From Marinifilaceae bacterium (lineage in GTDB: Bacteria > Bacteroidota > Bacteroidia > Bacteroidales > Marinifilaceae): a DNA stretch of 64,000 nucleotides. Each line of letters starts with the position of its first letter. The first letter of the stretch is position 1. A program made the position numbers and the translations under genes. Where the stretch lies: NCBI GenBank assembly GCA_041725895.1, contig JBGRQA010000005.1, positions 141,134 to 205,133 of the forward strand. Reading direction: 5' to 3'. Of the stretch, positions 12,536 through 64,000 are shown in pieces. The notes below the pieces were generated by a model. The model did no database searches and was not told the origin of the DNA. It saw nothing but the letters and a program-made list of their open reading frames with translations.

Positions 12536-12614
12536 AACCTAAGGTGTTTGACTTGTTTATTTTTTTGCTTAGGCATAAATGTACGAAAAAATACTTAACA
12601 TACAATTATAGAAA

Positions 12615-12649
12615 ATAAAAAACCCCGAAAAGTTTTCTTTTCGGGGTTT
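12615..12649 (-). terminator. rho-independent terminator after deoC
   Basis: Stem AAACCCCGAAAAG-tttt-CTTTTCGGGGTTT, with a T-run on the minus strand. Confidence 0.75.
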
Positions 12650-12666
12650 ACTATCAATATTTTAAT

Positions 12667-43678: not shown

Positions 43679-44980
43679 TTAAACATGCTCCGAAAAGAGA
43701 GCCCGTATCGGATTAAAAATACGTTGCAAGAGACGAATATCCTCCGTAATAATATCGGAAGCTCCCTCCATCTGTTGAGAGAAATCCAACTTCTTCCCAT
43801 AATTGGTTTCCAAACCATTAGTTAACCGGACTTCACAGCTATACTTTTGATCATCCGGAACCAAAGAGATGGATTGAATTTGTCCCTCCAGCATTCCATA
43901 TTCCATAAAGGGATAGTTATCCAGCTTAATATTAACCTTTTGGCCAACCTTTACCTTTCCGGCCCCCTGCAAGCCCAATTCAATTCGGGCAAAAATTTTG
44001 GTCGAATCTTCCGGTATAACCGTAAGAACACGTTCTCCCGCTTTCACCTGTTGGTTCAAACTCCAAAACTTGTTAAAACTTACGAATCCCTTAATCGGTG
44101 ACCGCAAAAGATACCGCTGTTCCCAAATATCAATTTGAGCCTTTAGATTATCGTAGGCTTGTACAAGAGAATTTTGCTTGGTTCTTAGAATATCTACATG
44201 AGACAATTCCAGGTCCATTATTTCTTGCTGAAGAGCTGAAATACTAATTTGTGTATTGGCAAGAGAGGTGCGGGCCCCATGAAAGGAGTAACTTTGATCC
44301 AAATAGGCTTTTTGCGATATTTGGTAATCAGCCAGTGCCAAAACGCCTTTACGATACAATACAGAATCCCTATGGAATTGCTGTTCCGCAATTTCGAGTT
44401 CCTTTTCGAGTATGTCTCTCTGTTGAAACAAGCGATTGTAATAAAGGTTGTATTTTGCAACCTGATCCTTTTTAGATTCAATTTTACGGGCATGATATTC
44501 CAAATCAATAAAGTCTTGATAATCCGAAAATTGCTTCAAAAATGAGGCATAGTAGCTTTGAATTTCTCCCAACTGATAGTTTTGAGTAAAATCGGTATCA
44601 ATCAACCCGTTAAAATCGGTAAAATAGCTTTGAAGCTGATCCAATTGCTTCCGTAATGAATTTACATCTTGTAATTTGCCGGAGTTTTCGATCAATGCAA
44701 GAATTTGACCAGGTTCCACCATCTGGTTCTCCTGCACAAGCAATTGATCGATAGTGCCGTTTACCTTAGCAACCATTTTAGCGGGAGGATTTTCAGTCGT
44801 CAAAATCACTTTGGCAGGAATAATATCAGGATACCTGAAAAAATAGCTTCCAACAATAATTATAAAAATAACAGTAAATATGAGGCTAATCCCCCTTCGG
44901 ATGATCCAGTGAGGAATATGGCCTAAAATTTCCTGTACCTCCTCACTACGAAGTTCTATATTATTCGGGTTTTGTGGCAT
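43679..44980 (-). CDS. HlyD-family secretion adaptor protein (bacteriocin/peptide export accessory)
   Basis: Single N-terminal TM, a long coiled-coil middle and a C-terminal beta-barrel/lipoyl-like region. It lies directly downstream of the C39-ABC exporter. Confidence 0.85.
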   Translation of the reverse strand: MPQNPNNIELRSEEVQEILGHIPHWIIRRGISLIFTVIFIIIVGSYFFRYPDIIPAKVILTTENPPAKMVAKVNGTIDQLLVQENQMVEPGQILALIENSGKLQDVNSLRKQLDQLQSYFTDFNGLIDTDFTQNYQLGEIQSYYASFLKQFSDYQDFIDLEYHARKIESKKDQVAKYNLYYNRLFQQRDILEKELEIAEQQFHRDSVLYRKGVLALADYQISQKAYLDQSYSFHGARTSLANTQISISALQQEIMDLELSHVDILRTKQNSLVQAYDNLKAQIDIWEQRYLLRSPIKGFVSFNKFWSLNQQVKAGERVLTVIPEDSTKIFARIELGLQGAGKVKVGQKVNIKLDNYPFMEYGMLEGQIQSISLVPDDQKYSCEVRLTNGLETNYGKKLDFSQQMEGASDIITEDIRLLQRIFNPIRALFSEHV

Positions 44981-45084
44981 CTAATACGGGTTTTATGTAT
45001 TTTTCGGGTAATATTGGCTTTGTTATACTTGATTTAGAATAGATTATTTGTTCTTTCTAAATTTTTGTTTAGAAAATCTACGTC

Positions 45085-47292
45085 CTAACCACCTAATTCC
45101 AATTGATTTTTTACAAGTCGGTAGTAGGCTCCCTCCATTAATGCCAACTCATCATGACTTCCTCTTTCCACAATCTGTCCTTTCTCAATGACTATGATTT
45201 GATCGGCATTTTTAACGGTACTTAATCGGTGAGCAACAACAACCACGGTTCTACCCTTGTTGAATTTTTCCAAATTCTCCATAATGGCTCTTTCATTGTT
45301 GGCATCCAAAGCGTTGGTTGCTTCATCAAAAAACAGATATTCGGGGTTTTTATATACTGCCCGGGCGATTAAAATCCGTTGCTTTTGTCCCTGACTTAAA
45401 CCATGACCATCAGATCCAATTTTAGTATTGAATCGCAAAGGTAATTTTTCGATAAAATCATGAATACAGGCAACCTGTACAGCGTGAAGCAATCGCTTCT
45501 TATCCACAATTTCATCACCAACAGCAATATTCCGGGCTATGGTATCTGAAAAAATGAACCCCTCCTGCATTACCACACCACAATTCTGTCGCCACATTGG
45601 GGAACTGTAGTTTTGAAGATCTACTCCCCCCACAGTAACCTGTCCCTTTGTAGGTGGATAAAAACCAAGCATGAGCTTAATCAGAGTGGTTTTTCCACTT
45701 CCGGAGGTTCCCACAATTGCTGTCGTCTTCCCTTTGGGAATATCCAATTGAATATTATCCAGAACCATTTCGGAATGAGGGCCCTCATACTGAAAACTCA
45801 CCTTGTCAATGATAATACTTCTATCCTCTGGCAACTCACGCAATTTCTCCTCCTCAAAATTCTCTTCATCCTCTTTTTCATGAATTTCGCCCAATCGTTC
45901 CATAGATATTTTAGCGTCTTGCCAGGAGTGAATAAACTGAATCATACTATCGATAGGAGAATTCAACTGCCCTATAATGTACTGGACTGCCAACATCATA
46001 CCTAAAGTCATTTGTCCGTCCAATACCGATTTGGCCGCCAAAAAAGTGATCAGAATGTTCTTGGTTTCGTTAAAAAACACCGAACCCGAAGTCTGGTACT
46101 GATTCAAAGACAGCCCCTGAATGCGAACACGAAACAACTGTGCCTGAATCTGTTCCCACTCCCAACGTTTCTGCTTCTCACAATTGTTCAGTTTAATTTC
46201 CTGCATTCCGGTAATCAACTGAACAATGTTGCTCTGGTTACTGGAGAGCTGGGCGAAGCGTTTGCCATCCAATTCCCTTCTTTTTCTTAGGAACAGGTTG
46301 ATCCAGGTAATATACAATGCACTACCCAAAACAAAAATCAGGAAGATTTGCAGGTTGTAAATGGCAAGAACCACTCCAAAAATAATCAGGTTGACAAAGG
46401 AAAAAAGTATATTAAGGGTAGAAGAAGTCAAAAAGCTTTCAATTCGGGTATGATCCTGGATTCGTTGCATCAAATCACCAATCATTTTGATATCGAAAAA
46501 GCCAATGGGAAGTTTCATCAACTTGATCAAAAAGTCGGAGATTAAGGAAATATTGATCCGAGTTGAAATGTGCAGGAGAATCCAGCTACGTATAAAATCA
46601 ACCGACATTCTACTGATAAACAGAAACAATTGGGCAACAAGAATCAAGTGAATGAAATTCAGATTCCGCGTATTGATCCCCACATCAACAATCGACTGCG
46701 TCAAAAAGGGAAAAATCAATTGCAACATACTCCCGAAAAGCATGCCCAAAAAGAGCTGAAACAGAAACTTTTTATAGGGTCTCAAATACTGAAGCAAAAA
46801 TCCGACCTTCTTCCTCTTGGAGCCTTTCTCATCTTCATTGGAAAAGAATTCAGGAGTTGTTTCCAAAAGCAAGCAGAGCCCCTTTTCCTCTCCCTGACTT
46901 TTGGTTGTAGCCCAGGATTTGGAGAACTCCTTTTCACTGTACTTCAACAAACCAGCCCCAGGGTCGGCTACATGAATCTCATAGCCCTTTTTCTTCTTCT
47001 CCACTTTGTGTACCACCACAAAATGGTTCTGCCCCCAATGAGCTACACAGGGTAATGGAGCCTCTTCAGCCAATTGCTTAAAACTTATACGTACTCCCAT
47101 GCTTTTCATGCCAATACTTTCAGCAGCATCGGCAATTCCAAGCATCGAAACTCCTTCGCGGGTAATATGGCTTCGATCACGGAGAGTTTGCAAGGTGTAA
47201 TTCTTACCATAATATTTAGCAATCATACGCAGGCAAGTGGGCCCGCAATCCATTGCATCTAGCTGAGTAAAATGGGGAAATCGTTTCTTCAA
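45085..47292 (-). CDS. peptidase C39 domain-containing ABC transporter (double-glycine leader cleavage and export)
   Basis: N-terminal C39 motif QLDAMDCGPTCLRMIAKYYG with a downstream NHFVVVH. Six TM helices. Walker A GTSGSGKTT, signature LSQGQKQR, Walker B YLFFDEAT. Confidence 0.93.
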   Translation of the reverse strand: MKKRFPHFTQLDAMDCGPTCLRMIAKYYGKNYTLQTLRDRSHITREGVSMLGIADAAESIGMKSMGVRISFKQLAEEAPLPCVAHWGQNHFVVVHKVEKKKKGYEIHVADPGAGLLKYSEKEFSKSWATTKSQGEEKGLCLLLETTPEFFSNEDEKGSKRKKVGFLLQYLRPYKKFLFQLFLGMLFGSMLQLIFPFLTQSIVDVGINTRNLNFIHLILVAQLFLFISRMSVDFIRSWILLHISTRINISLISDFLIKLMKLPIGFFDIKMIGDLMQRIQDHTRIESFLTSSTLNILFSFVNLIIFGVVLAIYNLQIFLIFVLGSALYITWINLFLRKRRELDGKRFAQLSSNQSNIVQLITGMQEIKLNNCEKQKRWEWEQIQAQLFRVRIQGLSLNQYQTSGSVFFNETKNILITFLAAKSVLDGQMTLGMMLAVQYIIGQLNSPIDSMIQFIHSWQDAKISMERLGEIHEKEDEENFEEEKLRELPEDRSIIIDKVSFQYEGPHSEMVLDNIQLDIPKGKTTAIVGTSGSGKTTLIKLMLGFYPPTKGQVTVGGVDLQNYSSPMWRQNCGVVMQEGFIFSDTIARNIAVGDEIVDKKRLLHAVQVACIHDFIEKLPLRFNTKIGSDGHGLSQGQKQRILIARAVYKNPEYLFFDEATNALDANNERAIMENLEKFNKGRTVVVVAHRLSTVKNADQIIVIEKGQIVERGSHDELALMEGAYYRLVKNQLELGG

Positions 47293-47647
47293 AATTATTT
47301 CGTAGTTAACAATTTGTAATAATTAAGCTTAAAAATAAGGAAAATAAACTCTGAATTACTATTATTTTAGTGTTTTGCTGGATTATTACTTTTTTTTATT
47401 AAAATTAATTATCCATAACTTTAATAAATGTGTGTTTTCGTTCTGAAATTCAACAAGATCCTTCAAAAAAACACATAACAATAATCTAATTAATAAAAAT
47501 ATTTATTTCTTCAAAAACAGTCAATAGCTTTAATTATTATATTAACCATAATAAAAAACTATACTTTTACGAAAAAAAATGAACCAGAACAATCAATCTG
47601 GTCCAAAGTCCTTGCAAATTTATAGTTGCATATTATTTTTAAGTTAA

Positions 47648-48982
47648 TTATTTAAGTGTGGATTCATAGTATGCTTCAAGATTTTTATTCAGCATTCCAG
47701 GGGCTTTCTCCATACACTGACATAAATTATACTCTCCAGCATGATAGAGATTTCGCATATTGTACCAAGTACATTTTCCATTACATATTGGCAAAAAGAA
47801 GCATTTCCTACATGTCGGATCATTATACCAACTACCACCTTCCATGTATTTATAAAACAAAGATGGGTTTGTCATTTTTTCTTGGTTTATATATCCCACA
47901 ATCCGACTTTTATCTGAGACATCATTCCAACATCTGTATATTTCGCCGACTGGACCGATAATATAGGAATTCAATTTAGTAGCGCAACATGTTTTACCAA
48001 GCACAAGTGAAGGATAAGTCGGAATATCAATCATTCCCTTTTGTCCCAATTCGTAGTGAAGTTCAGCAACCTCCTCACGAGGAATGGTCGGTGATTTCAC
48101 ATTTGTGTTGGTTGAATTTTCAAGTCTTATAATCCCAGGATAAATAATCAGATTCTTACTTGATGTGAAAGCTTTTATTTCAGAATATACTTGATAGTAA
48201 TCACCAATATTGGTTTTATCAATATTTACACGAACATGAAGTTCGGTTTCGGGTAACCTCTTGAGGATATTTTTAATATTATGAATAATCCTATTATAGG
48301 ATGAACCCTTTACATCACTTTTATCCGCCCGTAAAAGATTATGCCTTTTCTCGTTTCCATCTAAAGTTATCTGGATATTATCTAAAGGATATCGCTTAAA
48401 GAAATCAATGACTTCATCATTAAATAAATATCCATTGGTTATTATAGTGTGCTTTTTTAAGGGGATATCAACTTCTGAAGATAGTTTATTAAGAATATTT
48501 TGGATCTGTTCAAAAGCAAGAAGAGGTTCTCCTCCGTACCACGTGATATCCATCTCCTCCGCACTTTTATGTCTCTTAATAAAATTAAAAAGATCTCCAA
48601 TTACTTGATCCGTAATAATACCTGATCGTTTACCTCTTTCGAAACAATAGGGACAATCAAAGTTACAGTCTATTGTAGGTACAATTACAAGTCCCAACTT
48701 ATCCTTATTGTGTTTTCTACTCTGAGTATAGAATTGATGCTTCAAAACAAATATATCATCTGCTCCGTCGGAAACTATTATCCCATTCTCTTCTAACAAT
48801 TTAAAGGCATCTTCTGGCAATTCTCCTAATAGGGTAGGATCTGACTTACATTTTTCTATATAATTATAAAGCTCCTTTGAGAGCTCTAAAAAGGAATTAA
48901 AACAAGAGGAATAAACCAAATATTTTCCTTTTGAGGATACAAACAAATAAACATATCTTGAAATTATCTTCTTCGTATTCAT
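47648..48982 (-). CDS. radical SAM/SPASM-domain peptide maturase
   Basis: CNFDCPYC (CxxxCxxC) cluster after a roughly 100-aa N-terminal, possibly RRE-like, region. The Cys-rich C-terminus CCATK...GEIYRCWND...CRKCFFLPICNGKC fits a SPASM twitch/auxiliary cluster domain. Confidence 0.9.
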   Translation of the reverse strand: MNTKKIISRYVYLFVSSKGKYLVYSSCFNSFLELSKELYNYIEKCKSDPTLLGELPEDAFKLLEENGIIVSDGADDIFVLKHQFYTQSRKHNKDKLGLVIVPTIDCNFDCPYCFERGKRSGIITDQVIGDLFNFIKRHKSAEEMDITWYGGEPLLAFEQIQNILNKLSSEVDIPLKKHTIITNGYLFNDEVIDFFKRYPLDNIQITLDGNEKRHNLLRADKSDVKGSSYNRIIHNIKNILKRLPETELHVRVNIDKTNIGDYYQVYSEIKAFTSSKNLIIYPGIIRLENSTNTNVKSPTIPREEVAELHYELGQKGMIDIPTYPSLVLGKTCCATKLNSYIIGPVGEIYRCWNDVSDKSRIVGYINQEKMTNPSLFYKYMEGGSWYNDPTCRKCFFLPICNGKCTWYNMRNLYHAGEYNLCQCMEKAPGMLNKNLEAYYESTLK

Positions 48983-49018
48983 TATATTTAAAATTATACT
49001 TACTATTGGCCGTTAGCT

Positions 49019-49050
49019 AAAAACTGCTCCACTTAATATCAGTAGAGCAG
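49019..49050 (-). terminator. intrinsic terminator or attenuator between the precursor genes and the maturase gene
   Basis: On the minus strand, CTGCTCTAC-tgatattaa-GTGGAGCAG (one mismatch) is followed by TTTTT. Confidence 0.5.
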
Positions 49051-49084
49051 TCTGAATTTTTAGATTTACAAATTAGTATCCGTC

Positions 49085-49279
49085 TTATTTTGTAGTTGGA
49101 TCCGTTGGTTTGGTTGGTTTGGTTTCATTTTTATTCCCAATCCAACAGTCACAAGAACAATCTTGTTCATCAGCAACTGAGGTAACACCACCAAAAACAT
49201 TAACTAATTCATCTTGATTAAGTACGTCAGAGTTTTTAATAACTCTTACCGAAAAATCATTTTTCCCTTTTTTAGTCAT
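49085..49279 (-). CDS. RiPP precursor peptide B (GG leader; CSCDCWIGN core; Pro/Thr tail)
   Basis: 64 aa: MTKKGKNDFSVRVIKNSDVLNQDELVNVFGG|VTSVADEQDCSCDCWIGNKNETKPTKPTDPTTK. Paralogue of peptide A. I place the start at the internal ATG at 49279. Confidence 0.85.
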   Translation of the reverse strand: MTKKGKNDFSVRVIKNSDVLNQDELVNVFGGVTSVADEQDCSCDCWIGNKNETKPTKPTDPTTK

Positions 49280-49322
49280 AATATTATAATTAAAACTATT
49301 TGTACACTTGATTATCTGCAAC

Positions 49323-49514
49323 TTACTTTGTAGTAGGATCCGTTGGTTTAGTTGGTGTGCTATTACTATTACCAATCCAACAATCACATGTACATTCTGG
49401 TTCAGCTGCATCTGAATTTAAACCACCAAAAACATTAACTAATTCGTCTTGGTTAAGCACGTCTGAGTTATTGATAACTTTTACCGAAAACTCTTTTTGA
49501 TCTTTTTTAGTCAT
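49323..49514 (-). CDS. RiPP precursor peptide A (GG leader; CTCDCWIGN core; Pro/Thr tail)
   Basis: 63 aa: MTKKDQKEFSVKVINNSDVLNQDELVNVFGG|LNSDAAEPECTCDCWIGNSNSTPTKPTDPTTK. Confidence 0.88.
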   Translation of the reverse strand: MTKKDQKEFSVKVINNSDVLNQDELVNVFGGLNSDAAEPECTCDCWIGNSNSTPTKPTDPTTK

Positions 49515-49663
49515 AACATTAAATTTTAAAGATTAATTAATTGATTTTCAATGCGCATTTTTACTGAGCTCATAGTAAACTTAAGTTACTTCACTGTCAA
49601 TATTGGCAGTCAACCAAGAAGACGATATCTAAATACTATGTAACCAATTAATCTCTCCTTTAC

Positions 49664-49867
49664 TTAATGTTCTGTAAGAATATAAGTTCGGAGACTACGA
49701 GAATAAAAAATATCATTTCCATAATCTCTTAAATAATCAATCATACGATACAAAGTACGCTCAGAGACTCCTATTTTAAATGCCAATTCCTTAGGAGTTC
49801 CGGTAGCTTTAAGAGAAGCCAATTTTTTTATTCTTTCCAATTTCTCGAAATCTTCAAAAATATTCAT
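49664..49867 (-). CDS. small helix-turn-helix protein (67 aa), first gene of the precursor operon
   Basis: GTPKELAFKIGVSERTLYRMIDYL is an HTH_11/DeoR-N-like motif. Promoter motif copy A lies 38 nt upstream. Confidence 0.7.
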   Translation of the reverse strand: MNIFEDFEKLERIKKLASLKATGTPKELAFKIGVSERTLYRMIDYLRDYGNDIFYSRSLRTYILTEH

Positions 49868-49905
49868 AGTAAAAAAATAATTTTGGCAATGAATTATTGT
49901 TTCTT

Positions 49906-49936
49906 CTTTATTCCGAATTATTTAAAAAGGTAACCC
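49906..49936 (-). promoter_or_regulatory. alternative-sigma-type promoter motif, copy A
   Basis: Minus strand: GGGTTACCTTTT-TAAATAATTC-GGAATAAAG, 38 nt upstream of the HTH gene ATG. Confidence 0.65.
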
Positions 49937-50573: not shown

Positions 50574-51788
50574 TTAGGATTCTGATTTCAGAGTCGCCAC
50601 AACAACAATTGGATTATCTTCACTCTTCACATGGGAAACCAATTCCTTTAACTCGTCCTGCTTCTGTTGGGAAACAGCATTTCCCCATTGAAAATCCTCC
50701 TTCTGAAAGCTTTCCTTGAAAGCGGAAGCATTCCGCCAATTGCACAAATATTTGTCCTGATATATCCGCTTGGGCCAAAAGGTTTGGCCTCCATCCAAAT
50801 CATTCAAAAGGCCATAGGATCCGCTTGCTGTTTGCACAGAATAGAATTCCTTATTCACTTTATCATACAATCCGGTTATTATCTTTCCCTTGTAATCAAA
50901 ACTCATACAGGAGACAAACAACCATTTTTCACTCTCGTACACAATAGGATTCAAATATTTCCCTGCATAGTTTTGGTAACGCTTCATATCCTCTACGTAT
51001 TCTATTCGTTTCTCGACGGGGATAAATTTTTCGCCTAGCTCCAATTTATAAATCGGTTTCATTTCAGTTGGGCTGGCACAGGTAAAAATGGTATCACCAT
51101 ATAGTTTCCGGAAATGAAGCTTATTTTGATAATGATAGAAATACCGATCCGGAATCATCCAGAAAACACCGTTCCCATGAACAGTAAAACGTTCATGATT
51201 TGTAAATCCTTTGATACTATCCAATTCAACACCAAAAGAGATAGCCTTTATTTCTTTCTCTCCCTGCGGATTTCGCACATGAAGCAGAAAGGAAGTGGAA
51301 TCGATCCAATCAAAAGCCATTCCCGGCTGATCAGGAACAGGAAATTCCTCTATATAATTTCCTAAAAAATCGTACACAACCAGTTTTTGACGTCCTCCTG
51401 CACTAACGTATACCCGTTGAAGTTCCTGATTTACGGAAAGATGGTAAACTCTGGCATATTCACCAGGCCCCTTACCTATTGCTCCCACTTTACGAATAAA
51501 TTTTCCTGCCCGGTTGAATTGCATGACTGCATCGGAAGAATGGGTAAAAATAAATTGATCGGTAACAATCACATCTCGTATTCTCCCTAAATAGGAATCG
51601 TCATTCGTTTCCAGTGGAATGTATTGAATATCTTCAGCAAGAGCCGATAAATTTACACTTCGGCAATTGTCAAGATTCGCATTCAGTTCAACGTGGATGA
51701 TACCATCAACTTCCTTTTTGGAAGAGGTAGATCCACAGCTCCAAAGAAGGGTGGAAAGAAGAAAAAGAAAAACAGTTCGTAGAAGCAT
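50574..51788 (-). CDS. lipoprotein, probable 6-bladed beta-propeller family (BF3164/DUF5128-like)
   Basis: Lipobox LLWSCGS, and a beta-rich 404-aa body with repeated aromatic/Gly blades. The family assignment is from memory and weak. Confidence 0.45.
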   Translation of the reverse strand: MLLRTVFLFLLSTLLWSCGSTSSKKEVDGIIHVELNANLDNCRSVNLSALAEDIQYIPLETNDDSYLGRIRDVIVTDQFIFTHSSDAVMQFNRAGKFIRKVGAIGKGPGEYARVYHLSVNQELQRVYVSAGGRQKLVVYDFLGNYIEEFPVPDQPGMAFDWIDSTSFLLHVRNPQGEKEIKAISFGVELDSIKGFTNHERFTVHGNGVFWMIPDRYFYHYQNKLHFRKLYGDTIFTCASPTEMKPIYKLELGEKFIPVEKRIEYVEDMKRYQNYAGKYLNPIVYESEKWLFVSCMSFDYKGKIITGLYDKVNKEFYSVQTASGSYGLLNDLDGGQTFWPKRIYQDKYLCNWRNASAFKESFQKEDFQWGNAVSQQKQDELKELVSHVKSEDNPIVVVATLKSES

Positions 51789-51835
51789 GGTTAGTTAGAT
51801 TTAAAAACATAAAATATTATTCCAGAAATATAAAA

Positions 51836-51872
51836 CGAAAAAAGCAGGATCTTTCAAAGGAAAGTCCTGCTT
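51836..51872 (-). terminator. rho-independent terminator after the LytTR gene
   Basis: On the minus strand, AGCAGGA-loop-TCCTGCT is followed by TTTTTT. Confidence 0.6.
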
Positions 51873-51905
51873 TACAACAATTCATTTAATTTCACTTTTA
51901 ACAAT

Positions 51906-52268
51906 CTAATGGTGAACTCTTAGATCCAAACTCAATTTTTCCAACAATTCCTGCTTTCGCCGCCTTGCTACCGGTATGGAAGCCCCATCCTGAAGTATCA
52001 ATTGATCGGAACCAAAATTGTACTCCCGAACCTGTGAAAGGTTCACAAGAAAAGAGCGATGAATTCGGAAAAAGCCCAGAGAGTTAATCCGTTCCTCCAC
52101 CTTGGCGATGGATTGAGAAATGGTTAAACTCTCTCCATTTTTGAGGAAAATAACACTATAATTCTCCGCTGCCCGACAATATAAAATTTCATAAAGCCAA
52201 AGTAAATGCAGCCTTCGCTCCCCAGAAAAAGTGACCTTTTTGTGATAGTCAATAGTTAATTCGAGCAT
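51906..52268 (-). CDS. stand-alone LytTR DNA-binding domain protein (no receiver domain)
   Basis: 120 aa. ...ILYCRAAENYSVIFLKNGESLTISQSIAKVEERI...FFRIHRSFLVNLSQV is the LytTR signature. Confidence 0.85.
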   Translation of the reverse strand: MLELTIDYHKKVTFSGERRLHLLWLYEILYCRAAENYSVIFLKNGESLTISQSIAKVEERINSLGFFRIHRSFLVNLSQVREYNFGSDQLILQDGASIPVARRRKQELLEKLSLDLRVHH

Positions 52269-52300
52269 AAATTTCAGGTTTTATAATTTTAGTTGTACCC

Positions 52301-52331
52301 CTTTATTCCCAAAATTGAGAAAAGGTAACCC
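52301..52331 (-). promoter_or_regulatory. alternative-sigma-type promoter motif, copy B
   Basis: Minus strand: GGGTTACCTTTT-CTCAATTTTG-GGAATAAAG, 32 nt upstream of the LytTR gene ATG. Confidence 0.65.
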
Positions 52332-57051: not shown

Positions 57052-57405
57052 TTAATCTTCAACCAGATATCCATTCTCCTTAAAATACTCAACAATGGAT
57101 GATTTTAACAACTGTTGCGCTTTATCTTTAGAAAATGAGGGCAAAAGTTTATTTCTCTCAAAAACCGGCCAATTATCTTCATCGACTCCAGTTTGGGTAT
57201 AGTAATTCCACCGCATAAACAATTTACAGGTGGCCAAATCAATTAAATCTGTTTTCTCTTGCTTGGTATATGATTTTTCAAATCCTTTTCCTCGCTCCTG
57301 AATACCGATGAGTAGCAACATTCCATTCAAATCGGCATCCACATCAAACTCTACAGATACTTTATAGAGCAATTTATTCCAATCTCTCTCCAAATTACTT
57401 TCCAT
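57052..57405 (-). CDS. hypothetical cytoplasmic protein (117 aa)
   Basis: Clean ORF with normal codon usage, in an operon-like position upstream of the PPIase genes. I recognise no motif. Confidence 0.5.
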   Translation of the reverse strand: MESNLERDWNKLLYKVSVEFDVDADLNGMLLLIGIQERGKGFEKSYTKQEKTDLIDLATCKLFMRWNYYTQTGVDEDNWPVFERNKLLPSFSKDKAQQLLKSSIVEYFKENGYLVED

Positions 57406-57546: not shown

Positions 57547-57624
57547 GGGCGGTTAGCTCAGTTGGTTCAGAGCACTTGGTTTACACCCAAGGGGTCATAG
57601 GTTCGAATCCTATACCGCCCACCA
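57547..57624 (+). tRNA. tRNA-Val (anticodon TAC), CCA encoded
   Basis: Acceptor stem GGGCGGT/ACCGCCC, anticodon stem CTTGG/CCAAG with loop TT-TAC-AC, T-arm GGTTCGAATCC, then A-CCA. Confidence 0.9.
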
Positions 57625-57649
57625 GATTGAAATAAAATCCTCCCATTTC

Positions 57650-57724
57650 GGGCGATTAGCTCAGTTGGTTCAGAGCACTTGGTTTACACCCAAGGGGTCA
57701 TAGGTTCGAATCCTATATCGCCCA
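57650..57724 (+). tRNA. tRNA-Val (anticodon TAC), second tandem copy, no encoded CCA
   Basis: The body is identical to copy 1 except for a compensated acceptor-stem pair (GGGCGAT/ATCGCCC). It is followed by CAC rather than CCA. Confidence 0.9.
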
Positions 57725-57727
57725 CAC

Positions 57728-58039: not shown

Positions 58040-58070
58040 GGGTTACCTTTTAGTCAAAAGGAGAATAAAG
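58040..58070 (+). promoter_or_regulatory. alternative-sigma-type promoter motif, copy C (in front of the sigma gene itself)
   Basis: GGGTTACCTTTT-AGTCAAAAGG-AGAATAAAG, ending only 10 nt before the sigma gene ATG. Confidence 0.65.
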
Positions 58071-58080
58071 GGGTAGAAAT

Positions 58081-58641
58081 ATGGATTACACTACCGAAGC
58101 AATACTCGAGGGTATCAGTAGAAGCAATAACGATGTATTAAAATACGTATACAGCAAGTTTTACCCAAGTATTAGAAACTTTATAGAAAATAATAATGGA
58201 AATGAAGAGGACGCACGTGATCTTTTTCAAGAGGCCATTATTGTAATCTATCGTAAAATGAAAAAAGAACCTCTGGTTCTCAATTGTAACTTTAAAACCT
58301 ATATCTATTCGGTTTGTAAGTTACTATGGCTAAAACAACTGGAGAAACGAAGACAAAACAATGAGGTCTCCGACGATTCCCTATTGGATAACCGTTTGGA
58401 CGAAGTAACCCAAAACTGGGAGGAAACGGAACGATACAGGTTGTATCAGAAACACTTCCTTCGACTGGGAGACGATTGCCAAAAAGTTCTTCGACTCTCC
58501 CTAGAGAAAGTCTCCCTGAAGAAAATAGCCGAAATTATGGGCTACAAAGGGGAAAAATATGCGAAAAAAAGAAAATTTCAGTGTAAACAACAACTTGTGG
58601 AAAGTATAAAAAATGATAACCAATATAATGAAGTACAATGA
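58081..58641 (+). CDS. sigma-70 family (ECF-like) RNA polymerase sigma factor
   Basis: 186 aa. Region-2-like DARDLFQEAIIVIYRKM...YIYSVCKLLWL, and region-4 HTH CQKVLRLSLEKVSLKKIAEIMGY. Confidence 0.8.
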   Translation: MDYTTEAILEGISRSNNDVLKYVYSKFYPSIRNFIENNNGNEEDARDLFQEAIIVIYRKMKKEPLVLNCNFKTYIYSVCKLLWLKQLEKRRQNNEVSDDSLLDNRLDEVTQNWEETERYRLYQKHFLRLGDDCQKVLRLSLEKVSLKKIAEIMGYKGEKYAKKRKFQCKQQLVESIKNDNQYNEVQ

Positions 58642-59390
58642 TGAATGAAAAGTTAAATTTTGAACGAATCGAGGAATTTCTGGATGGGGACTTAACCGGA
58701 GATGAATTGATGGAATTCGAACAGGATCTACTCGACGATTCCGACCTACAAATGGAGTTAGACCTTCATGAAGAAATCAATATGGCAATCATGGAGGATG
58801 ACGTTATGGACCTACGGGCGAAACTGGAAGCCATAGAACCTCCTGCAAGTGATAAGAAGAGACGATTATCACTATTCCTAGGAAAATGGCAATTGGCTGC
58901 AGCATCGTTAATCCTAATGATTGGTATTAGTAGCTTGTTCTACCTGTTGGGAGACCGCACCTATACCAATGAGGAAATCTACAGCAGTTACTACAAACCG
59001 TACAATGTTGTTATCAACACCCGTTCTGCTGAAGGAAGTACCAATGACATACTGGTAAATGCCTTGCAAAGTTACGAAGCAAAAGACTACCGGACTGCAT
59101 TGAGCTTATTCAAAGATGTTCTTGACAAAGACAGCTTGAATGTTACCGGAAACTTCTATTCAGGAGTTTCAAACATCGAAATTAAAGAGTATGATGCCGC
59201 GAATGTAAACTTTACTCGTGTAATCAAACATAAAAACAATTTATTCCTGGAGCAATCAGAATGGAATTTAGCCTTCTGTTACCTCATGACAGAAGAAAAA
59301 GAAAAAGCAATTAAGCAATTTCAATACATAGCAGCAAGCAACAGCTACTACAAGTCCAAAGCCCAGGAGATTTTAAATAAGCTGGAATAG
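58638..59390 (+). CDS. anti-sigma-factor-like single-pass membrane protein with extracytoplasmic TPR-like domain
   Basis: ATGA overlap with the sigma stop codon. It has an acidic N-terminal helix region (IEEFLDGDLTGDELMEFEQDL), a TM segment (WQLAAASLILMIGISSLFYLL) and a C-terminal TPR-like domain. Confidence 0.6.
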   Translation: MMNEKLNFERIEEFLDGDLTGDELMEFEQDLLDDSDLQMELDLHEEINMAIMEDDVMDLRAKLEAIEPPASDKKRRLSLFLGKWQLAAASLILMIGISSLFYLLGDRTYTNEEIYSSYYKPYNVVINTRSAEGSTNDILVNALQSYEAKDYRTALSLFKDVLDKDSLNVTGNFYSGVSNIEIKEYDAANVNFTRVIKHKNNLFLEQSEWNLAFCYLMTEEKEKAIKQFQYIAASNSYYKSKAQEILNKLE

Positions 59391-59418
59391 ATTACTTTTC
59401 ATTCATCGTCAAATATAG

Positions 59419-59454
59419 AAAGCCGTTTGATCACAATCGAACGGCTTTTTCTTT
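59419..59454 (+). terminator. rho-independent terminator after the sigma/anti-sigma pair
   Basis: Stem AAAGCCGTT-loop-AACGGCTTT followed by a T-run. Confidence 0.65.
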
Positions 59455-59852
59455 GCTTACACCTTACATAAAATTAAACCACATGCCACACGAAACTGTA
59501 GTGCTATTCATCCCTTAATAAATCGAATTATAGATACTTGTATTATTAAACAATCAGTTCATCAACTGACAGTCTCGAAATGTCCGAACACAAAATAGAA
59601 GAATGTCTTCCGGCAATTTGTCAACCTCCCCGTCTAGCAAAATAGAACCGTAATCCTTTATATCATTGTGATTCAAATACTATTTTGTGAAGTCGAAAGA
59701 TATGGATTATTGCTCTGCAAAAATGGAAAGTGATTCGATCCTAAACCAAACATGAAATGGCATACTTACCATATCCTTTTGTTAATGTATTTTTTATTCA
59801 GTTAAATATTCTATAGCTTTCATATTGAACTGGCATTTACAAGTATTGCAAT

Positions 59853-62717
59853 CTATCTATTCAATTTCCTTCTCCGGAAGAGGTAGTAAATTGGAAAGCA
59901 AAAAAGTAGTAGTAAAGCCAAATATTTCCCTTTGGAAACTACTCCTCCATCATACATAACCGAAGTATCGCCCAAAGTAACATAGCCCGACCAAAAATAG
60001 GGATGAGCTTTTAAAGGATCCGCATTTTTAAGGTATTCCATTTTTGCTGCCCTCAAAGCGGCGTCTTTGGACATACCTTCCCCCAGAAATTGATAGAAAT
60101 AGGTCATTAAACTGGATCCGGATTTATCCTCTACAGTCCACAATGTCATCACAATACTGGGACAACCTGCATAGAAAAAACCACGTGCCAAACTCATCAC
60201 CCCTTCCCCTTTCAACAATTTTCCATCGCCGGTATTGCATGCACTCAAAACAACCATTCGCGCATTAAAATTCATATTATAAATCTCATGCGTATTCAAC
60301 AAGCCATCCTCGCCAGCAGACTTATTTTGTGTAAACACCAACTTCGAGAACATGGGATTCTCATCATCGATAATGGTATGCATGGCCAAATGCAAAACGT
60401 CGTAGTTGATTGCATTCTTCTTAAAATTTTCCTCTGTAGCCAATTCATCCACATACAAATCGCCTTCAATTACTTTCGAAATATTCTTAACCTCCTCTTT
60501 TACACCAGGCAAAGGAAATAGCTTATCCCGATAAGCAGCTCTCTCCACATACAGTATAGAGTCACTCACATCGTTATAACTGGGAGCGAAAGCCAACAAT
60601 ACTTTTGAGGATTCGTGCTCTTTCTGGGTATTTTTAAAACCAAGAGTTGCCGAATTTTGATAAGTAATGGTATGATCCTTCAGTAAGTAATCAAGATTCC
60701 TGTAATTGATCTTACTTGAATCCCCATTCTGTTTTAACAGTACACCAAAGGGCAAATAGGCCAACTTATCATCGGGAACTATGACCAATTTTTTCTGATG
60801 AATCATAGAATCAAAAGAAAATAGTAATTGTTGGTAGAGCTGATGTGCCGAATGGATATAGGTTTTATAGTATTCAAAACTATTTTGTGAAAAATCGTTG
60901 GTTTTTAGACACTTCCGAACAGATTCAATGTTCTTATCCAACTCAGATTTATTAATGGATTGGCGCTGAATCTGAAAATCATTGGAAGAAATGATGAAAG
61001 AGAAGAGCGCCGAATCGGAAATGGAATACTCCACAAATACCTCTCCCTCCCCCAAATGTTCCTGAAGTTCCTTAACATCAATGGTTCGGGCATCATATTT
61101 CAAAGCAAAGTAATCAGGATACTCCAGCTCGAAGGTTTTCACCATCTCCTCGTACTGAACATTCAGGTTGAAGAGCTCATTCTGCCATTCAGCTATTTTT
61201 TTCCGGCTGGGCTTCAGCTTCTTTCTTTCCTCATAAACAGCAGCCCTGTATTTGGCAATCCCCTTCCTTACCTCCTGTTCCTGTTTCTGCAGTTCGGCAG
61301 GAATTCCCCCAAATTCTTTGGCGTTTACATCTCGCAGAGAGGCCATTAAACTGGCTGACTTGGAGCGCTCAGCATAGTAGAAGGCTTTCTCCTTATAGAT
61401 ATACTCCCCGGTCTCCTTGTATAGCTGAAGCGCTAATTCAATCGATTTGGTATAGGTTTCCTTCTCGTTTTCAGAAAGTATTAACCGGCTCTCCTCGTCC
61501 TGGTAGGCGATTCGAATTCGGTCAATAGTAACCAGGCACAGATCAAAAGTTTCCAATGCTATCTTCAGATCCTTAATCTCCCTGGTATCCTTAGCATACA
61601 ATTCATAGAAGGCGTAGGCTTTCCCCTTTAAACAGGAAAGAATCGAAATCTGAGGATCAATCTGTTCCTGAATTGGATTGTGATAAATATTATTATCGGA
61701 ATAATTCTCCAACTCCGAATTCAGGGATTTTTGGAAATAATCAAGCGCCTTTCTTCTTTTTCCCATCTTTAAGTAAAAGGTCCCGTAATTGTTTAAGCAT
61801 TGGGCAATATAGGGATTTGATCCTCCCATATTTTTTGAATAAACCTGGTAAGCTTTTCCAAGATTAAGGAGAGCCTCCTCATTTCTCTCATGAGCAAAGA
61901 GGAATACAGCGAAATTCATGTACAAATTCCCTAGGAGATAAGAATCTATAGAGTTATTCCGAATAGTCTCTTCAATACTCAGTTTGTGATAATAGATAGC
62001 TTTCTCAAAATCTTTCAGATGGTTGTAGCAATTGGCCATATTGGTATAGTTACTACTCAAATCCTTTACCCTGAATTTTTTCTTCAGATCCAAACTTTCG
62101 GAATAGTAACTCAAGGCTTTACCCCATTGCTTCTTGTTCTTACAAATAATCCCCAAATTATTATACAATAAGGCCAACCAGCGTAAATTCTTCTTAGAAT
62201 CCTTTTTTAAATTAAACAAAGCCTCGTTGTAGAACTTCTCCGCTTTCAAAATATCTCCCCTGAAAGTATAGATATTCCCCTGATTCAAGTTTATCAACCC
62301 CAATTTGTTAAAATCATTTTTGAAATGAAGCTGTACCAAATTCTCCGTCCTCTGATAGAATTGAAGCGCCTCCTCCATTTTCCCTAATTTTTTTTTGAGT
62401 ACTCCAAAATTCATATAAATCCGGTAGGCCAAGTTGGGATCAAAGTCAGAGCTTTGTTCTAACAACTCAACTGTTTTCTGAAAGGATTCCTCTGCATTTA
62501 TAAAATCACCATTTCTCAAAGCTCCAACGGATTGATCATATAAAGCTTTCAATGAAGTATCCTGCTGAAGAATCGATTTCTCATGAGTAGGAAAATGGGG
62601 GGCTGACCCCACTGCATAGCCATCCCTGCCCATCAAAAAACAGAAGAGGAGCAGTAGAAATAAAAAAATCGTACTTTTTTTTCTTACAAGGGTGTCAAAA
62701 GCTAAGAACCTGAACAC
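59853..62717 (-). CDS. TPR-repeat CHAT-domain protein (caspase-like protease fold) with signal peptide and C-terminal TM anchor
   Basis: About 450 aa of TPR units, then a CHAT domain with a His/Cys dyad context (VLHLAMHT ... VVLSACNTGDG), then a terminal TM (YLALLLLFCFPIYYLF). It apparently uses a GTG start, so the start is uncertain. Confidence 0.8.
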   Translation of the reverse strand: MFRFLAFDTLVRKKSTIFLFLLLLFCFLMGRDGYAVGSAPHFPTHEKSILQQDTSLKALYDQSVGALRNGDFINAEESFQKTVELLEQSSDFDPNLAYRIYMNFGVLKKKLGKMEEALQFYQRTENLVQLHFKNDFNKLGLINLNQGNIYTFRGDILKAEKFYNEALFNLKKDSKKNLRWLALLYNNLGIICKNKKQWGKALSYYSESLDLKKKFRVKDLSSNYTNMANCYNHLKDFEKAIYYHKLSIEETIRNNSIDSYLLGNLYMNFAVFLFAHERNEEALLNLGKAYQVYSKNMGGSNPYIAQCLNNYGTFYLKMGKRRKALDYFQKSLNSELENYSDNNIYHNPIQEQIDPQISILSCLKGKAYAFYELYAKDTREIKDLKIALETFDLCLVTIDRIRIAYQDEESRLILSENEKETYTKSIELALQLYKETGEYIYKEKAFYYAERSKSASLMASLRDVNAKEFGGIPAELQKQEQEVRKGIAKYRAAVYEERKKLKPSRKKIAEWQNELFNLNVQYEEMVKTFELEYPDYFALKYDARTIDVKELQEHLGEGEVFVEYSISDSALFSFIISSNDFQIQRQSINKSELDKNIESVRKCLKTNDFSQNSFEYYKTYIHSAHQLYQQLLFSFDSMIHQKKLVIVPDDKLAYLPFGVLLKQNGDSSKINYRNLDYLLKDHTITYQNSATLGFKNTQKEHESSKVLLAFAPSYNDVSDSILYVERAAYRDKLFPLPGVKEEVKNISKVIEGDLYVDELATEENFKKNAINYDVLHLAMHTIIDDENPMFSKLVFTQNKSAGEDGLLNTHEIYNMNFNARMVVLSACNTGDGKLLKGEGVMSLARGFFYAGCPSIVMTLWTVEDKSGSSLMTYFYQFLGEGMSKDAALRAAKMEYLKNADPLKAHPYFWSGYVTLGDTSVMYDGGVVSKGKYLALLLLFCFPIYYLFRRRKLNR

Positions 62718-62802: not shown

Positions 62803-62833
62803 GGGTTACCTTTTCGTGATTTTCGGAATAAAG
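62803..62833 (+). promoter_or_regulatory. alternative-sigma-type promoter motif, copy D
   Basis: GGGTTACCTTTT-CGTGATTTTC-GGAATAAAG, 42 nt upstream of small peptide gene 1. Confidence 0.65.
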
Positions 62834-62875
62834 GGATGTATTTAATTTTTAATAAACATCATTAATCCCTATACC

Positions 62876-62983
62876 ATGAAAAATTTCGAAACCCTAAACC
62901 AAGAAGAGCTGCAGGAAGTTAAAGGCGGATACAATCCTTACGAAATGAGAGAAATCGATGTCACCGATGACGCTATTGTTTAA
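62876..62983 (+). CDS. 35-aa double-glycine-leader peptide 1 (acidic 17-aa core)
   Basis: MKNFETLNQEELQEVKGG|YNPYEMREIDVTDDAIV. It is absent from the ORF track because it is under 60 aa. Support comes from the paralogue comparison. Confidence 0.75.
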   Translation: MKNFETLNQEELQEVKGGYNPYEMREIDVTDDAIV

Positions 62984-63017
62984 TCACTATATTAATTGAT
63001 CAAAATTTCCCTATACC

Positions 63018-63125
63018 ATGAAAAATTTTGAAACCCTAAACCAAGAAGAGCTACTGGAAGTAAAAGGTGGATACAATCCTTATGAAATGAGAGAAATCGA
63101 TGTTACTGATGATGCTATCGTATAA
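63018..63125 (+). CDS. 35-aa double-glycine-leader peptide 2 (identical core)
   Basis: MKNFETLNQEELLEVKGG|YNPYEMREIDVTDDAIV. Against copy 1 it has 10 synonymous and 1 non-synonymous difference (leader Q13L). Confidence 0.75.
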   Translation: MKNFETLNQEELLEVKGGYNPYEMREIDVTDDAIV

Positions 63126-63167: not shown

Positions 63168-63198
63168 GGGTTACCTTTTGATGGAAAACGGAATTAAG
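63168..63198 (+). promoter_or_regulatory. alternative-sigma-type promoter motif, copy E
   Basis: GGGTTACCTTTT-GATGGAAAAC-GGAATTAAG, 31 nt upstream of the histidine kinase ATG. Confidence 0.6.
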
Positions 63199-63229
63199 AA
63201 GTAAAGCCGGACCCTTAAAACACAAAAAT

Positions 63230-64000
63230 ATGGAGAAACGTCCAACATATAAGGAATTGGAAAGGCAACTGAAAGATGCTTTGCACAGGGCCCAGGAAGC
63301 CGAAGAGCTGAAAAATGCTTTTTTGGCCAACATGTCCCACGAGATACGCACGCCAATGAATGCGATTATCGGAGCGTCGGAATTGTTGCGAGACCAAAAC
63401 CTTACGGTGGCCGAACGAAATGAGTTTGCCAATATTCTCTCTACGAGCAGCCGTGAATTGTTGGAATTGTTTAACCGAATTATAGAATTGTCTGAGATGG
63501 AATCCGGACAATGCAAATTGAACGAAGCCGAATTGGATCTACAGATTCTTTTTCTGAAACTGTATTCTAAATACGAGGTCAGGATTAAGGAGGAGAAAAA
63601 GAACATAACATTATCCTACACACAGCAAATACCGGATATCTCCTTTTTCACCGATTCGGATAAACTGAACAAGGTATTAAGCCACCTTTTAGATAATGCC
63701 GTCAAGTATACAACCAATGGCAATATCGAATTTGGATGCAACCTACAGGATCATAATAATCTTTTATTCTACGTAAAAGACACAGGTCCGGGAATTAGCA
63801 TCAAAGAACAAGAAAATATTTTCCAGAAATTCCGGCAAATTGATAATTCCTATACCAGGGAATATTCCGGGGCTGGTTTGGGCTTAAGTTTAAGTAAAGA
63901 AACCGTAAAAATATTAGGCGGACGATTATATATTGACTCAATACCCGGCGAGGGTTCCATTTTTTACTTTACCCTGCCGTTGAAATATTCGGAAACGAAC
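63230..64000 (+). CDS. histidine kinase with no N-terminal sensor or TM domain (3' end outside the window)
   Basis: My own translation from ATG 63230 is open to the window end. It shows a coiled-coil N-terminus, H-box FLANMSHEIRTPMN, N-box LLDNAVKYT, G1 DTGPGI and G2 GAGLGLS. The ORF track lists only antisense ORFs here. Confidence 0.85.
   Translation, partial: MEKRPTYKELERQLKDALHRAQEAEELKNAFLANMSHEIRTPMNAIIGASELLRDQNLTVAERNEFANILSTSSRELLELFNRIIELSEMESGQCKLNEAELDLQILFLKLYSKYEVRIKEEKKNITLSYTQQIPDISFFTDSDKLNKVLSHLLDNAVKYTTNGNIEFGCNLQDHNNLLFYVKDTGPGISIKEQENIFQKFRQIDNSYTREYSGAGLGLSLSKETVKILGGRLYIDSIPGEGSIFYFTLPLKYSETN

Follow-up and report, generated by a model that had tools for sequence, protein, structure and literature searches.

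A 64,000-nucleotide (nt) stretch of forward-strand DNA from a Marinifilaceae bacterium (GCA_041725895.1, contig JBGRQA010000005.1, positions 141,134-205,133), referred to here as the window, contains adjacent genes for a sigma factor of the extracytoplasmic function (ECF) type, an anti-sigma-like membrane protein, a predicted protease with tetratricopeptide repeats (TPRs) and a CHAT domain, and two short peptides with double-glycine leaders. The relation of these genes to one another, and the possibility that the peptide acts on the sigma factor through the protease, are the subject of this analysis. The sigma gene (58081-58641, + strand) encodes a protein of 186 amino acids (aa) that matched TIGR02937 over residues 20-158 in a family-model search (61.3 bits against a cut-off of 42.9) and Sigma70_r2 in Pfam (25.9 bits against 24), with no separate region-4 match in the Pfam search; the product belongs to the two-domain ECF (group IV) sigma-70 factors. 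Homologues numbering 620 were retrieved, and an identical protein is recorded for a Marinifilaceae metagenome-assembled genome. The region-4 helix, (K/Q)YAKKRK(Y/F), is invariant. Four cysteines of the sigma factor (C69, C79, C133 and C168), spread over its region-2 and region-4 parts, were conserved with few or no exceptions in homologues of 51-78% identity, an arrangement that is unusual for ECF sigmas and may represent a metal or redox site. A profile built from 21 homologues and searched against bacterial and archaeal genomes, one per species, gave at least 331 sigma-related loci in these species-representative genomes. The best 80 of the 331, designated by L numbers and with sigma identities of 49-81%, served as the comparative set and came from Marinifilaceae, Prolixibacteraceae, Lentimicrobiaceae and other Bacteroidales.

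The sigma gene overlaps the gene of its partner at the junction caATGAtg, where the sigma stop codon (58639-58641) shares nucleotides with the partner ATG (58638-58640). The partner gene (58638-59390, + strand) encodes a single-pass, anti-sigma-like membrane protein of 250 aa, variously named hypothetical protein, TPR protein or YbgF family protein in databases, and a strong terminator-like hairpin (59417-59450, + strand) with a 15-bp stem followed by a run of T closes the operon. The protein has an acidic N-terminus and a single strongly hydrophobic segment at approximately residues 86-104, preceded by KKRR. Its AlphaFold model (mean predicted local distance difference test, or pLDDT, of 79) consists of four N-terminal helices, a transmembrane helix (72-105), a short helix (111-118), a coil (119-132) and 3.5 TPR repeats (133-249), and the topology predicted from it places the N-terminus in the cytoplasm and the TPR domain in the periplasm. 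Pfam TPR matches of the window protein were below threshold (the best 22.8 against 26.3). On Foldseek comparison, the TPR part resembled SycD/PcrH, TPR2A of HOP with bound MEEVD, RPAP3, Sgt2 and YbgF, with target-normalised template-modelling scores of 0.7-0.83 and weak E-values near 2e-3; residues of a HOP-type carboxylate clamp were sought in this domain and were not assignable from its sequence.

The assignment of the partner as an anti-sigma factor is supported by translational coupling to the sigma gene, adjacency of the two genes in most loci and a single membrane pass with the N-terminus inside. Within the N-terminal module, zf-HC2 was the sole recurrent Pfam family, found in seven of 19 members (best E=2.1e-5). 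Set against the assignment, the window protein itself fell below the zf-HC2 cut-off (E=0.041), no His or Cys ligands of the HxxxCxxC zinc type were present in residues 1-84 or in the alignment, and a profile of the N-terminal module searched against PDB sequences returned no anti-sigma factor, the best match being a Nif11 domain (E=0.01). Because zinc ligands and a match to the sequence of a solved anti-sigma factor are both absent, the assignment is considered probable only. The juxtamembrane linker of the partner, YYKPYNVVINTRS, is a predicted coil and carries a motif, [FY]xx[FY]YxP[YD]x5-6[RG]S, that all variants retained, which makes it an obvious candidate for the site of cleavage. A likeness between this linker (YKPY...TNDILV) and the peptides of the window (YNPY...TDDAIV) was considered as possible mimicry and was rejected as local chance, since the linker was conserved across loci while the peptides changed.

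Convergent to the sigma/partner pair is a gene (59853-62717, - strand) for a predicted membrane-anchored, caspase-like TPR-CHAT protease of 954 aa. Pfam CHAT was matched over residues 623-917 (6.7e-59), and TPR_12 (2.2e-31) and several other TPR families were also matched. In the AlphaFold model (pLDDT 85, predicted template-modelling score 0.78), an N-terminal hydrophobic helix is followed by eight TPRs (52-335), a helical scaffold to approximately residue 540, the CHAT fold and, at the C-terminus, a transmembrane helix (925-953) with a basic tail, RRRK. The sequences HLAMHT and LSACNTG lie at residues 776-781 and 824-830, respectively, and H776, H780 and C827 were invariant in all 56 full-length orthologues; H780 and C827 are the predicted catalytic dyad. 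Craspase Csx29 (2.4e-15), DdvA (8rot, 2.4e-13) and separase (5e-13) ranked highest in Foldseek comparisons with the model, and the N-terminal TPRs resembled the peptide-binding superhelix of LGN/Pins. As modelled, the product has the hallmarks of a TPR-CHAT protease in its His/Cys dyad, in the TPR superhelix that precedes the CHAT domain and in its overall fold. The signal-like N-terminus depends on a GTG start at 62717, whereas the NCBI record begins 28 residues later and is 926 aa long; the longer start is favoured because all orthologues carry an N-terminal signal-like segment. The protein is accordingly predicted to be periplasmic and membrane-anchored, which would place it in the same compartment as the TPR domain of the partner. 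A first-pass annotation, made from the letters of the window and a list of its open reading frames (ORFs), had described a sigma gene, a single-pass partner joined to it by an ATGA overlap, and a convergent 954-aa TPR-CHAT protein with a signal peptide and a His...Cys dyad context, and all of these were recovered, the signal peptide on the strength of the longer start that the orthologues support.

Divergent from the CHAT gene are two small genes, the first at 62876-62983 (+ strand; MKNFETLNQEELQEVKGG / YNPYEMREIDVTDDAIV) and the second, with the same 17-aa core, at 63018-63125 (+ strand). Both products are 35 aa long and consist of MKNFETLNQEEL(Q/L)EVKGG followed by the core YNPYEMREIDVTDDAIV. 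The leader matched TIGR01847, bacteriocin_sig (19.1 against a cut-off of 15.7), and leader-only matches to Pfam Bacteriocin_IIc (23.6 against 27.1) and ComC (20.2 against 20.4) were just below the cut-off. Comparison of the twin genes revealed 10 synonymous codon differences and one non-synonymous difference, the cores being identical, which indicates that the genes are translated and under purifying selection; both are real genes. In related loci, peptide genes are found either directly at the 5' end of CHAT or ahead of the anti-sigma gene, often in tandem, with one to six copies per array. The cores are for the most part acidic (mean net charge -3), 10-17 aa in length and terminated by a hydrophobic residue, and they vary between genera and often between species. 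Many Marinifilaceae cores (L002-L026) contain one or two Cys, for example YQDKCINEDILV and INEMTDVSTCEDCIV, and a disulfide or other modification of the mature peptide is possible in these cases; the window core has no Cys.

The association of these parts was evident from the comparative set. A CHAT orthologue (48-76% identity in the CHAT domain) was found within 10 kb of sigma in 63 of the 80 loci and in 37 of the 46 loci with at least 4.5 kb of sequence on both sides, while gene order differed between lineages. Thus, the order in Marinifilaceae is sigma, anti-sigma, convergent CHAT and divergent peptides; in L034-L051 and L068, motif (the promoter motif described below), peptide and CHAT are all co-directional; in L072, L076 and L078, CHAT overlaps sigma by 4 nt, and peptide and anti-sigma are divergent; and in L037, L042, L053 and L071, sigma and a convergent CHAT are followed by the motif, a peptide and an anti-sigma-like protein of approximately 510 aa. 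A reverse search from CHAT homologues of 29-37% identity recovered the same partners in L081 and L083. Beside the gene for a 37%-identical homologue were the motif, a gene for a peptide with a double-glycine leader and the core HGPGDFDLYWDDDLN, and one for an anti-sigma-like protein of 528 aa; the gene for a 29%-identical homologue was convergent to a sigma/TPR-partner pair. More distant TPR-CHAT paralogues (L082 and L084, 29-33% identity) had no sigma or such partners nearby, so that membership of the module is restricted to a subfamily of the TPR-CHAT proteins.

Several observations temper this association. Nine of the loci with full flanks had no nearby CHAT gene; the exceptions include L003, in which a transposase-like gene replaces CHAT, and several genomes of Prolixibacteraceae in which the sigma gene stands alone. 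No sigma was present within 6 kb of the 37%-identical CHAT homologue, where peptide, anti-sigma and CHAT genes thus stand apart from sigma, and the loci share descent, so that the counts overstate independent support. The parts stay together over dozens of species and in several gene orders, and sigma factor, partner, CHAT protein and peptides are very probably linked in function. This result agrees with the proposal in the first-pass annotation that genes and peptides form one module, for which it had suggested a check of sigma/CHAT co-occurrence across Bacteroidota; linkage was conserved, and the ECF-type promoter shared by the peptides also lies ahead of sigma.

Two kinds of variation were noted among the partner and CHAT genes of the set. 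Long anti-sigma-like variants of 506-528 aa (L037, L042, L053, L060, L061, L067, L071, L079 and L081) carry three to four tandem N-terminal modules of approximately 60 aa ahead of the membrane helix and, with modules in tandem, one such molecule might hold several sigmas. In L037 and L042, the peptide and anti-sigma cassette is present as an identical duplicate. In L003, from one Marinifilum genome, a 514-aa transposase-like gene and an ABC (ATP-binding cassette) exporter fragment (11606-13480) replace CHAT, peptides and kinase, followed by a cluster for a ribosomally synthesized and post-translationally modified peptide (RiPP); the sensor half of the module appears to have been lost naturally in this genome.

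The shared promoter was recognised as a bipartite motif, GGGTTACCTTTT-N10-GGAATAAAG, the aligned sites of which read GGGTTACCTTTT-N10-(G)GAAT(A/T)AAG(G/A)(G/A)G. Its elements, GGTTAC and GAATAA with a 16-nt spacer, have an ECF-like geometry. The 12-mer GGGTTACCTTTT was present in five exact copies in the window against 0.56 expected, and the motif in 114 copies in 1.26 Mb of loci against none in shuffles. A generic sigma-70-type promoter scan of the region gave 20 matches compared with 19.8 in shuffles. One site, GGGTTACCTTTT-N10-(G)GAATAAAGGGG (58040-58073, + strand), ends 7 nt before the sigma ATG, and the motif was found 11-14 nt ahead of the sigma ATG in approximately 55 loci across lineages, making sigma a candidate for autoregulation through its own upstream motif. 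A second site (62803-62836, + strand) precedes the peptide genes and was conserved before double-glycine-leader peptide genes in most loci. Others precede the gene for a histidine kinase (63168-63201, + strand; same arrangement in L031 and L032), that for a LytTR protein (52298-52331, - strand; a match to the 12-mer, 33 nt upstream of the gene) and that for a small helix-turn-helix (HTH) protein at the head of a RiPP cluster (49903-49936, - strand; an aligned site). The motif followed by a 65-aa HTH gene was kept in L007, L011, L015, L017 and L026. All sites examined were upstream of a sigma, double-glycine-leader peptide, kinase, HTH, anti-sigma paralogue or secreted-protein gene.

We infer that the motif is read by this sigma factor. 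Alternatively, it could be an operator of the LytTR protein, of the small HTH protein or of a response regulator fed by the kinase, with sigma, anti-sigma and CHAT as mere co-regulated targets. LytTR and HTH genes do lie nearby, both with the motif, and CCTTT/AAAGG within it forms a weak inverted repeat. LytTR sites, however, are normally direct repeats, which the motif is not; it persists in loci with no LytTR or HTH gene within 10 kb; and its -35/-10 geometry, 16-nt spacer and fixed short distance to the sigma start across lineages are those of a promoter; the invariant region-4 helix of the sigma factor also has a parallel in the invariant GGTTAC. An operator of this kind is regarded as very improbable.

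The CHAT protein differed from the other parts in the distribution of its sequence variation. Thus, mean pairwise identity among Marinifilaceae was 0.79 for sigma, 0.75 for the periplasmic part of the partner and 0.72 for the CHAT domain as opposed to 0.49 for CHAT residues 45-340, and the N-terminal TPR block (approximately residues 51-330) is hypervariable. Between species with 98-100% identical sigma factors, the TPR block was 73-77% identical where the peptide cores differed and 94% identical in L005/L006, the sole pair with identical cores, while the anti-sigma TPR domain was 93-97% identical in the same near-identical species pairs. At the nucleotide level, identity of approximately 95% in the pairs L006/L011 and L015/L018 fell to 65-79% only inside the TPR-coding block, and it rose again once the 5' end of the CHAT gene and the promoter region were reached. 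Values of dS and dN (synonymous and non-synonymous divergence) for the block were 1.0-1.7 and 0.17-0.19, respectively, compared with a flank dS of 0.1-0.3; substitution values for the block in the pair with identical peptides were like those of the flanks. The TPR block is in this respect a mosaic of old or recombined alleles, comparable to those known from pherotype loci such as comCD and agr.

Of the indirect arguments for reading of the peptide by the CHAT protein through its TPR block, these comparisons are the strongest, since the block diverged together with the peptide core while the anti-sigma TPR domain was conserved. The TPR block of the window has a net charge of +11 whereas the remainder of the CHAT protein is acidic, and the contrast between this charge and the acidic cores fits the same idea weakly. 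On such patterns of divergence, sensing of the peptide by the CHAT TPR block appears somewhat more probable than the contrary. The first-pass annotation had likened the TPR domains to RRNPP quorum-sensing receptors, an analogy that fails because the compartments differ: RRNPP receptors are cytoplasmic, bind peptide that has been re-imported and are mostly fused to an HTH or phosphatase function, and both TPR domains of the window are predicted to lie outside the cytoplasmic membrane and have no HTH.

The conserved periplasmic TPR domain of the partner could instead be the peptide receptor, with the CHAT protein trimming, maturing or destroying the peptide or resetting the system without cutting the anti-sigma factor. 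The domain resembles three-TPR modules for short or C-terminal acidic peptides (TPR2A of HOP with MEEVD, RPAP3, Sgt2 and SycD); acidic residues ahead of a hydrophobic C-terminus are a feature common to the cores and could be read by a conserved domain; and in several loci the anti-sigma gene directly follows the peptide gene. The peptides are also rich in Asp/Glu motifs and so might be substrates of a caspase-fold enzyme. It was the TPR block of the CHAT protein, however, that changed with the peptide, whereas the anti-sigma TPR domain was near-invariant where peptides differed, and an enzyme that degrades the peptide could do without a specificity block following it so closely, though such a block is conceivable. 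Reception by the partner is for these reasons considered unlikely.

A further explanation is that the peptides are outputs only, bacteriocin-like or otherwise secreted, and that the TPR-CHAT/anti-sigma pair senses something else, such as the envelope or a foreign protein, in line with what has been proposed for DdvA of Myxococcus xanthus. Bacteriocins are typically cationic or hydrophobic, whereas the cores, of 10-17 aa, are acidic and for the most part show no Cys pattern. The peptide genes, moreover, always adjoin CHAT or anti-sigma and have multiplied into tandem arrays, and core and TPR block diverge in parallel. On the other side, the regulon also includes a clear RiPP cluster, and one clade (L027, L029, L031, L032, L036, L039 and L041), with sigma, anti-sigma and a longer CHAT protein of 1068-1104 aa, had no recognisable double-glycine-leader peptide gene. 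In this clade the motif precedes a secreted protein of approximately 420 aa with a C-terminal domain of the type IX secretion system (T9SS) type, just upstream of the CHAT gene, and was also seen ahead of a second anti-sigma paralogue and of the kinase. The signal for DdvA is likewise thought to be a protein (PMC11506125). Taken together, a purely secretory role for the peptides is judged quite unlikely, somewhat more so than reception by the partner.

If the CHAT TPR block is the receptor, as in the reading favoured here, the following sequence of events can be proposed. The twin genes (62876-63125) would encode double-glycine-leader precursors, from which a C39-peptidase ABC exporter (45085-47292) would cut the leader and export the acidic 17-mer YNPYEMREIDVTDDAIV. 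In the periplasm, the membrane-anchored TPR-CHAT protein would recognise the peptide through its N-terminal TPR superhelix, and binding would activate the caspase-like CHAT domain (H780/C827). The protease would then make the site-1 cut in the unstructured linker of the partner between membrane helix and TPR domain, and a site-2 protease encoded elsewhere would liberate sigma. Free sigma would transcribe from GGTTAC-N16-GAATAA promoters its own operon and the peptide genes, giving positive feedback, and also the sensor-less histidine kinase, the LytTR protein and the radical S-adenosylmethionine (rSAM) RiPP/bacteriocin-like cluster. Binding of sigma to its partner, binding of the peptide, and activation and substrate of the protease are steps that we infer. 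Other findings pull the opposite way: no motif was found on the strand of the CHAT gene itself in the window or in other Marinifilaceae loci; the high dS of the TPR block shows old or recombined alleles and not ligand binding as such; the clade described above carries the other parts with no recognisable peptide gene; and a peptide of 1.3-2 kDa that passed the outer membrane would need a return route to the periplasm, none having been identified. The complete chain, including the step in which the anti-sigma factor is cleaved, is put forward tentatively, at close to an even chance. A little more doubtful, although in part favoured by the evidence, is its extension to peptide-pheromone quorum sensing in the Gram-negative Bacteroidota, in which the peptide would be the allosteric activator of a TPR-CHAT site-1 protease, with pherotypes and with control of RiPP or bacteriocin production.

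Two systems that couple a TPR-CHAT protein to a sigma factor have been described. In the DdvA-DdvS system of M. xanthus, an anti-sigma factor with a fused periplasmic TPR-CHAT region has been proposed to undergo self-cleavage (site 1) before RseP, which is unproven (PMC11506125). DdvA was reported as the sole characterised anti-sigma factor of its type, with a narrow distribution, and its signal is unknown, such that, according to the authors, the site-1 role cannot be validated until the signal is found (PMC11506125). The first-pass annotation had known of no characterised CHAT protease that acts as the site-1 protease of a sigma/anti-sigma pair; this calls for qualification in view of DdvA, for which such a role is a proposal (PMC11506125), and of Csx29-Csx30-RpoE (PMC9825189). 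Common to the window system and DdvA are a sigma factor of the ECF class, an anti-sigma protein with one membrane pass and, in the periplasm, a TPR-CHAT region with a conserved His/Cys dyad. DdvA, however, is one polypeptide with a zinc (CHCC) anti-sigma domain, whereas the window system is split and encoded on opposite strands, with a 250-aa partner that lacks zinc ligands and bears a small TPR domain of its own, and with the 954-aa TPR-CHAT protein as a separate product that has its own anchor. No fused anti-sigma/TPR-CHAT form was seen among the 80 loci. A phage-related signal is supposed for DdvA, the regulon of which comprises CBASS and CRISPR genes, as opposed to a candidate ligand gene and a regulon of peptide, kinase and RiPP genes for the module of the window. 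Reports of DdvA-like proteins are confined to Myxococcota and a single Comamonas, while the present module occurs in Bacteroidales families.

In craspase, the type III-E CRISPR system, Csx29 is a TPR-CHAT protease with Csx30, a protein that binds the sigma factor RpoE, as the substrate that it cleaves (PMC9825189). The likeness lies in an allosterically activated TPR-CHAT protease and a cleaved sigma-binding protein encoded beside an RpoE-type sigma. Craspase is cytoplasmic, activated by RNA through Cas7-11 (gRAMP) and serves in defence, whereas the window protease is predicted to be periplasmic and membrane-anchored. No cas gene was identified among the ORFs listed between 43.7 and 64 kb, and PADLOC on the window returned only generic TPR models, with no craspase match and no indication of membership in a defence system.

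Canonical proteolysis of ECF anti-sigma factors is represented by RseA with DegS and RseP, RsiW with PrsW, and RsiV with signal peptidase (PMC10202637). In common with these, the window has a co-transcribed single-pass anti-sigma-like protein, a periplasmic domain that would block the site-2 protease and a sigma factor that is apparently autoregulated. It differs in that a cysteine protease of caspase fold, with its own TPR domain that would read a ligand, is proposed for site 1, and in that the trigger would be a self-made peptide and not envelope damage. Parallels were also noted with the pheromone circuits of Gram-positive bacteria.

Gram-positive circuits based on double-glycine-leader pheromones include ComC/ComDE, BlpC/BlpHR and the induction peptides of class II bacteriocins (reviewed in PMC7595303). 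Shared with these are a short double-glycine-leader peptide, a C39 ABC exporter nearby, a peptide gene behind a promoter activated by the pathway, control of bacteriocin or RiPP production, and a peptide and presumed receptor that diversify in parallel. The Gram-positive circuits use a membrane histidine kinase and a response regulator, whereas in the window these places would be taken by the TPR-CHAT protein, the anti-sigma factor and the ECF sigma. The window kinase has no sensor or membrane part, and the host, unlike the bacteria with those circuits, has an outer membrane. Cell-cell signalling by peptides is regarded as a Gram-positive trait and, to our knowledge, none has been established in Bacteroidota. 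With respect to type, the module is ECF sigma control via a TPR-CHAT protease; new are its split halves, a predicted periplasmic protease with its own anchor, its occurrence in Bacteroidales and a candidate ligand of pherotype-like character.

As the module carries its own candidate ligand, the question raised by DdvA, i.e., whether a CHAT protein acts as site-1 protease for an ECF sigma, becomes directly testable. If true, a conserved, autoinducing, pherotype-like circuit would change the picture of signalling in Bacteroidota, with many marine and sediment Bacteroidales concerned, and would be the third independent pairing of TPR-CHAT with sigma control after craspase and DdvA, pointing to a general design principle. 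The promoter motif could also be used to find RiPP clusters under the same control. A search of full-text literature, within the scope of the searchable library, gave no published description of the Bacteroidota module, and CHAT is unmentioned in the main text of the ECF re-classification paper.

Of the remaining genes preceded by the motif, that for the histidine kinase (63230-64000, + strand) runs past the window end and encodes a coiled coil with HisKA (2.1e-16) and HATPase_c (3.5e-26) domains identified in Pfam; full-length orthologues of 275-318 aa contain no hydrophobic segment or sensor domain. The LytTR gene (51906-52268, - strand) encodes a 120-aa protein with a LytTR domain only, recognised by weak NCBIfam matches to the DNA-binding ends of BtsR/LytR, and no receiver domain; together with a following gene for a 404-aa lipoprotein-like protein with weak NHL/beta-propeller similarity, it occupies 50574-52331 (- strand). 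The RiPP/export cluster (43679-49867, - strand), recognised from ORFs and NCBIfam matches, is headed by a 67-aa HTH gene (49664-49867, - strand), which is followed by ORFs for two Cys-rich double-glycine-leader precursors (49323-49514 and 49085-49279, - strand) of 63-64 aa with leaders that end in NVFGG and cores of the form C-x-C-x-C-W. Next is an rSAM/SPASM maturase (47648-48982, - strand) that matched NCBIfam families (5e-59) far below all named-family cut-offs (best 200 bits against 525), leaving the product class undefined. The C39-peptidase ABC exporter (- strand) matched TIGR01193 (5.6e-123) from residue 10, the N-terminal peptidase domain included; it lies 15 kb from the peptide genes in the window, was also found near the module in several loci, and is the sole candidate in the window for removal of the double-glycine leader. 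The cluster ends with an ORF for a HlyD-like adaptor (43679-44980, - strand), and the lowest GC content of the window (0.31) was noted at 48-50 kb. Upstream of the sigma promoter are two tandem tRNA-Val(TAC) genes (57547-57725) and, before these, a conserved 117-aa gene (57052-57405) with no Pfam match, which, together with two cyclophilin-like genes and pheS, is syntenic with the module throughout Marinifilaceae.

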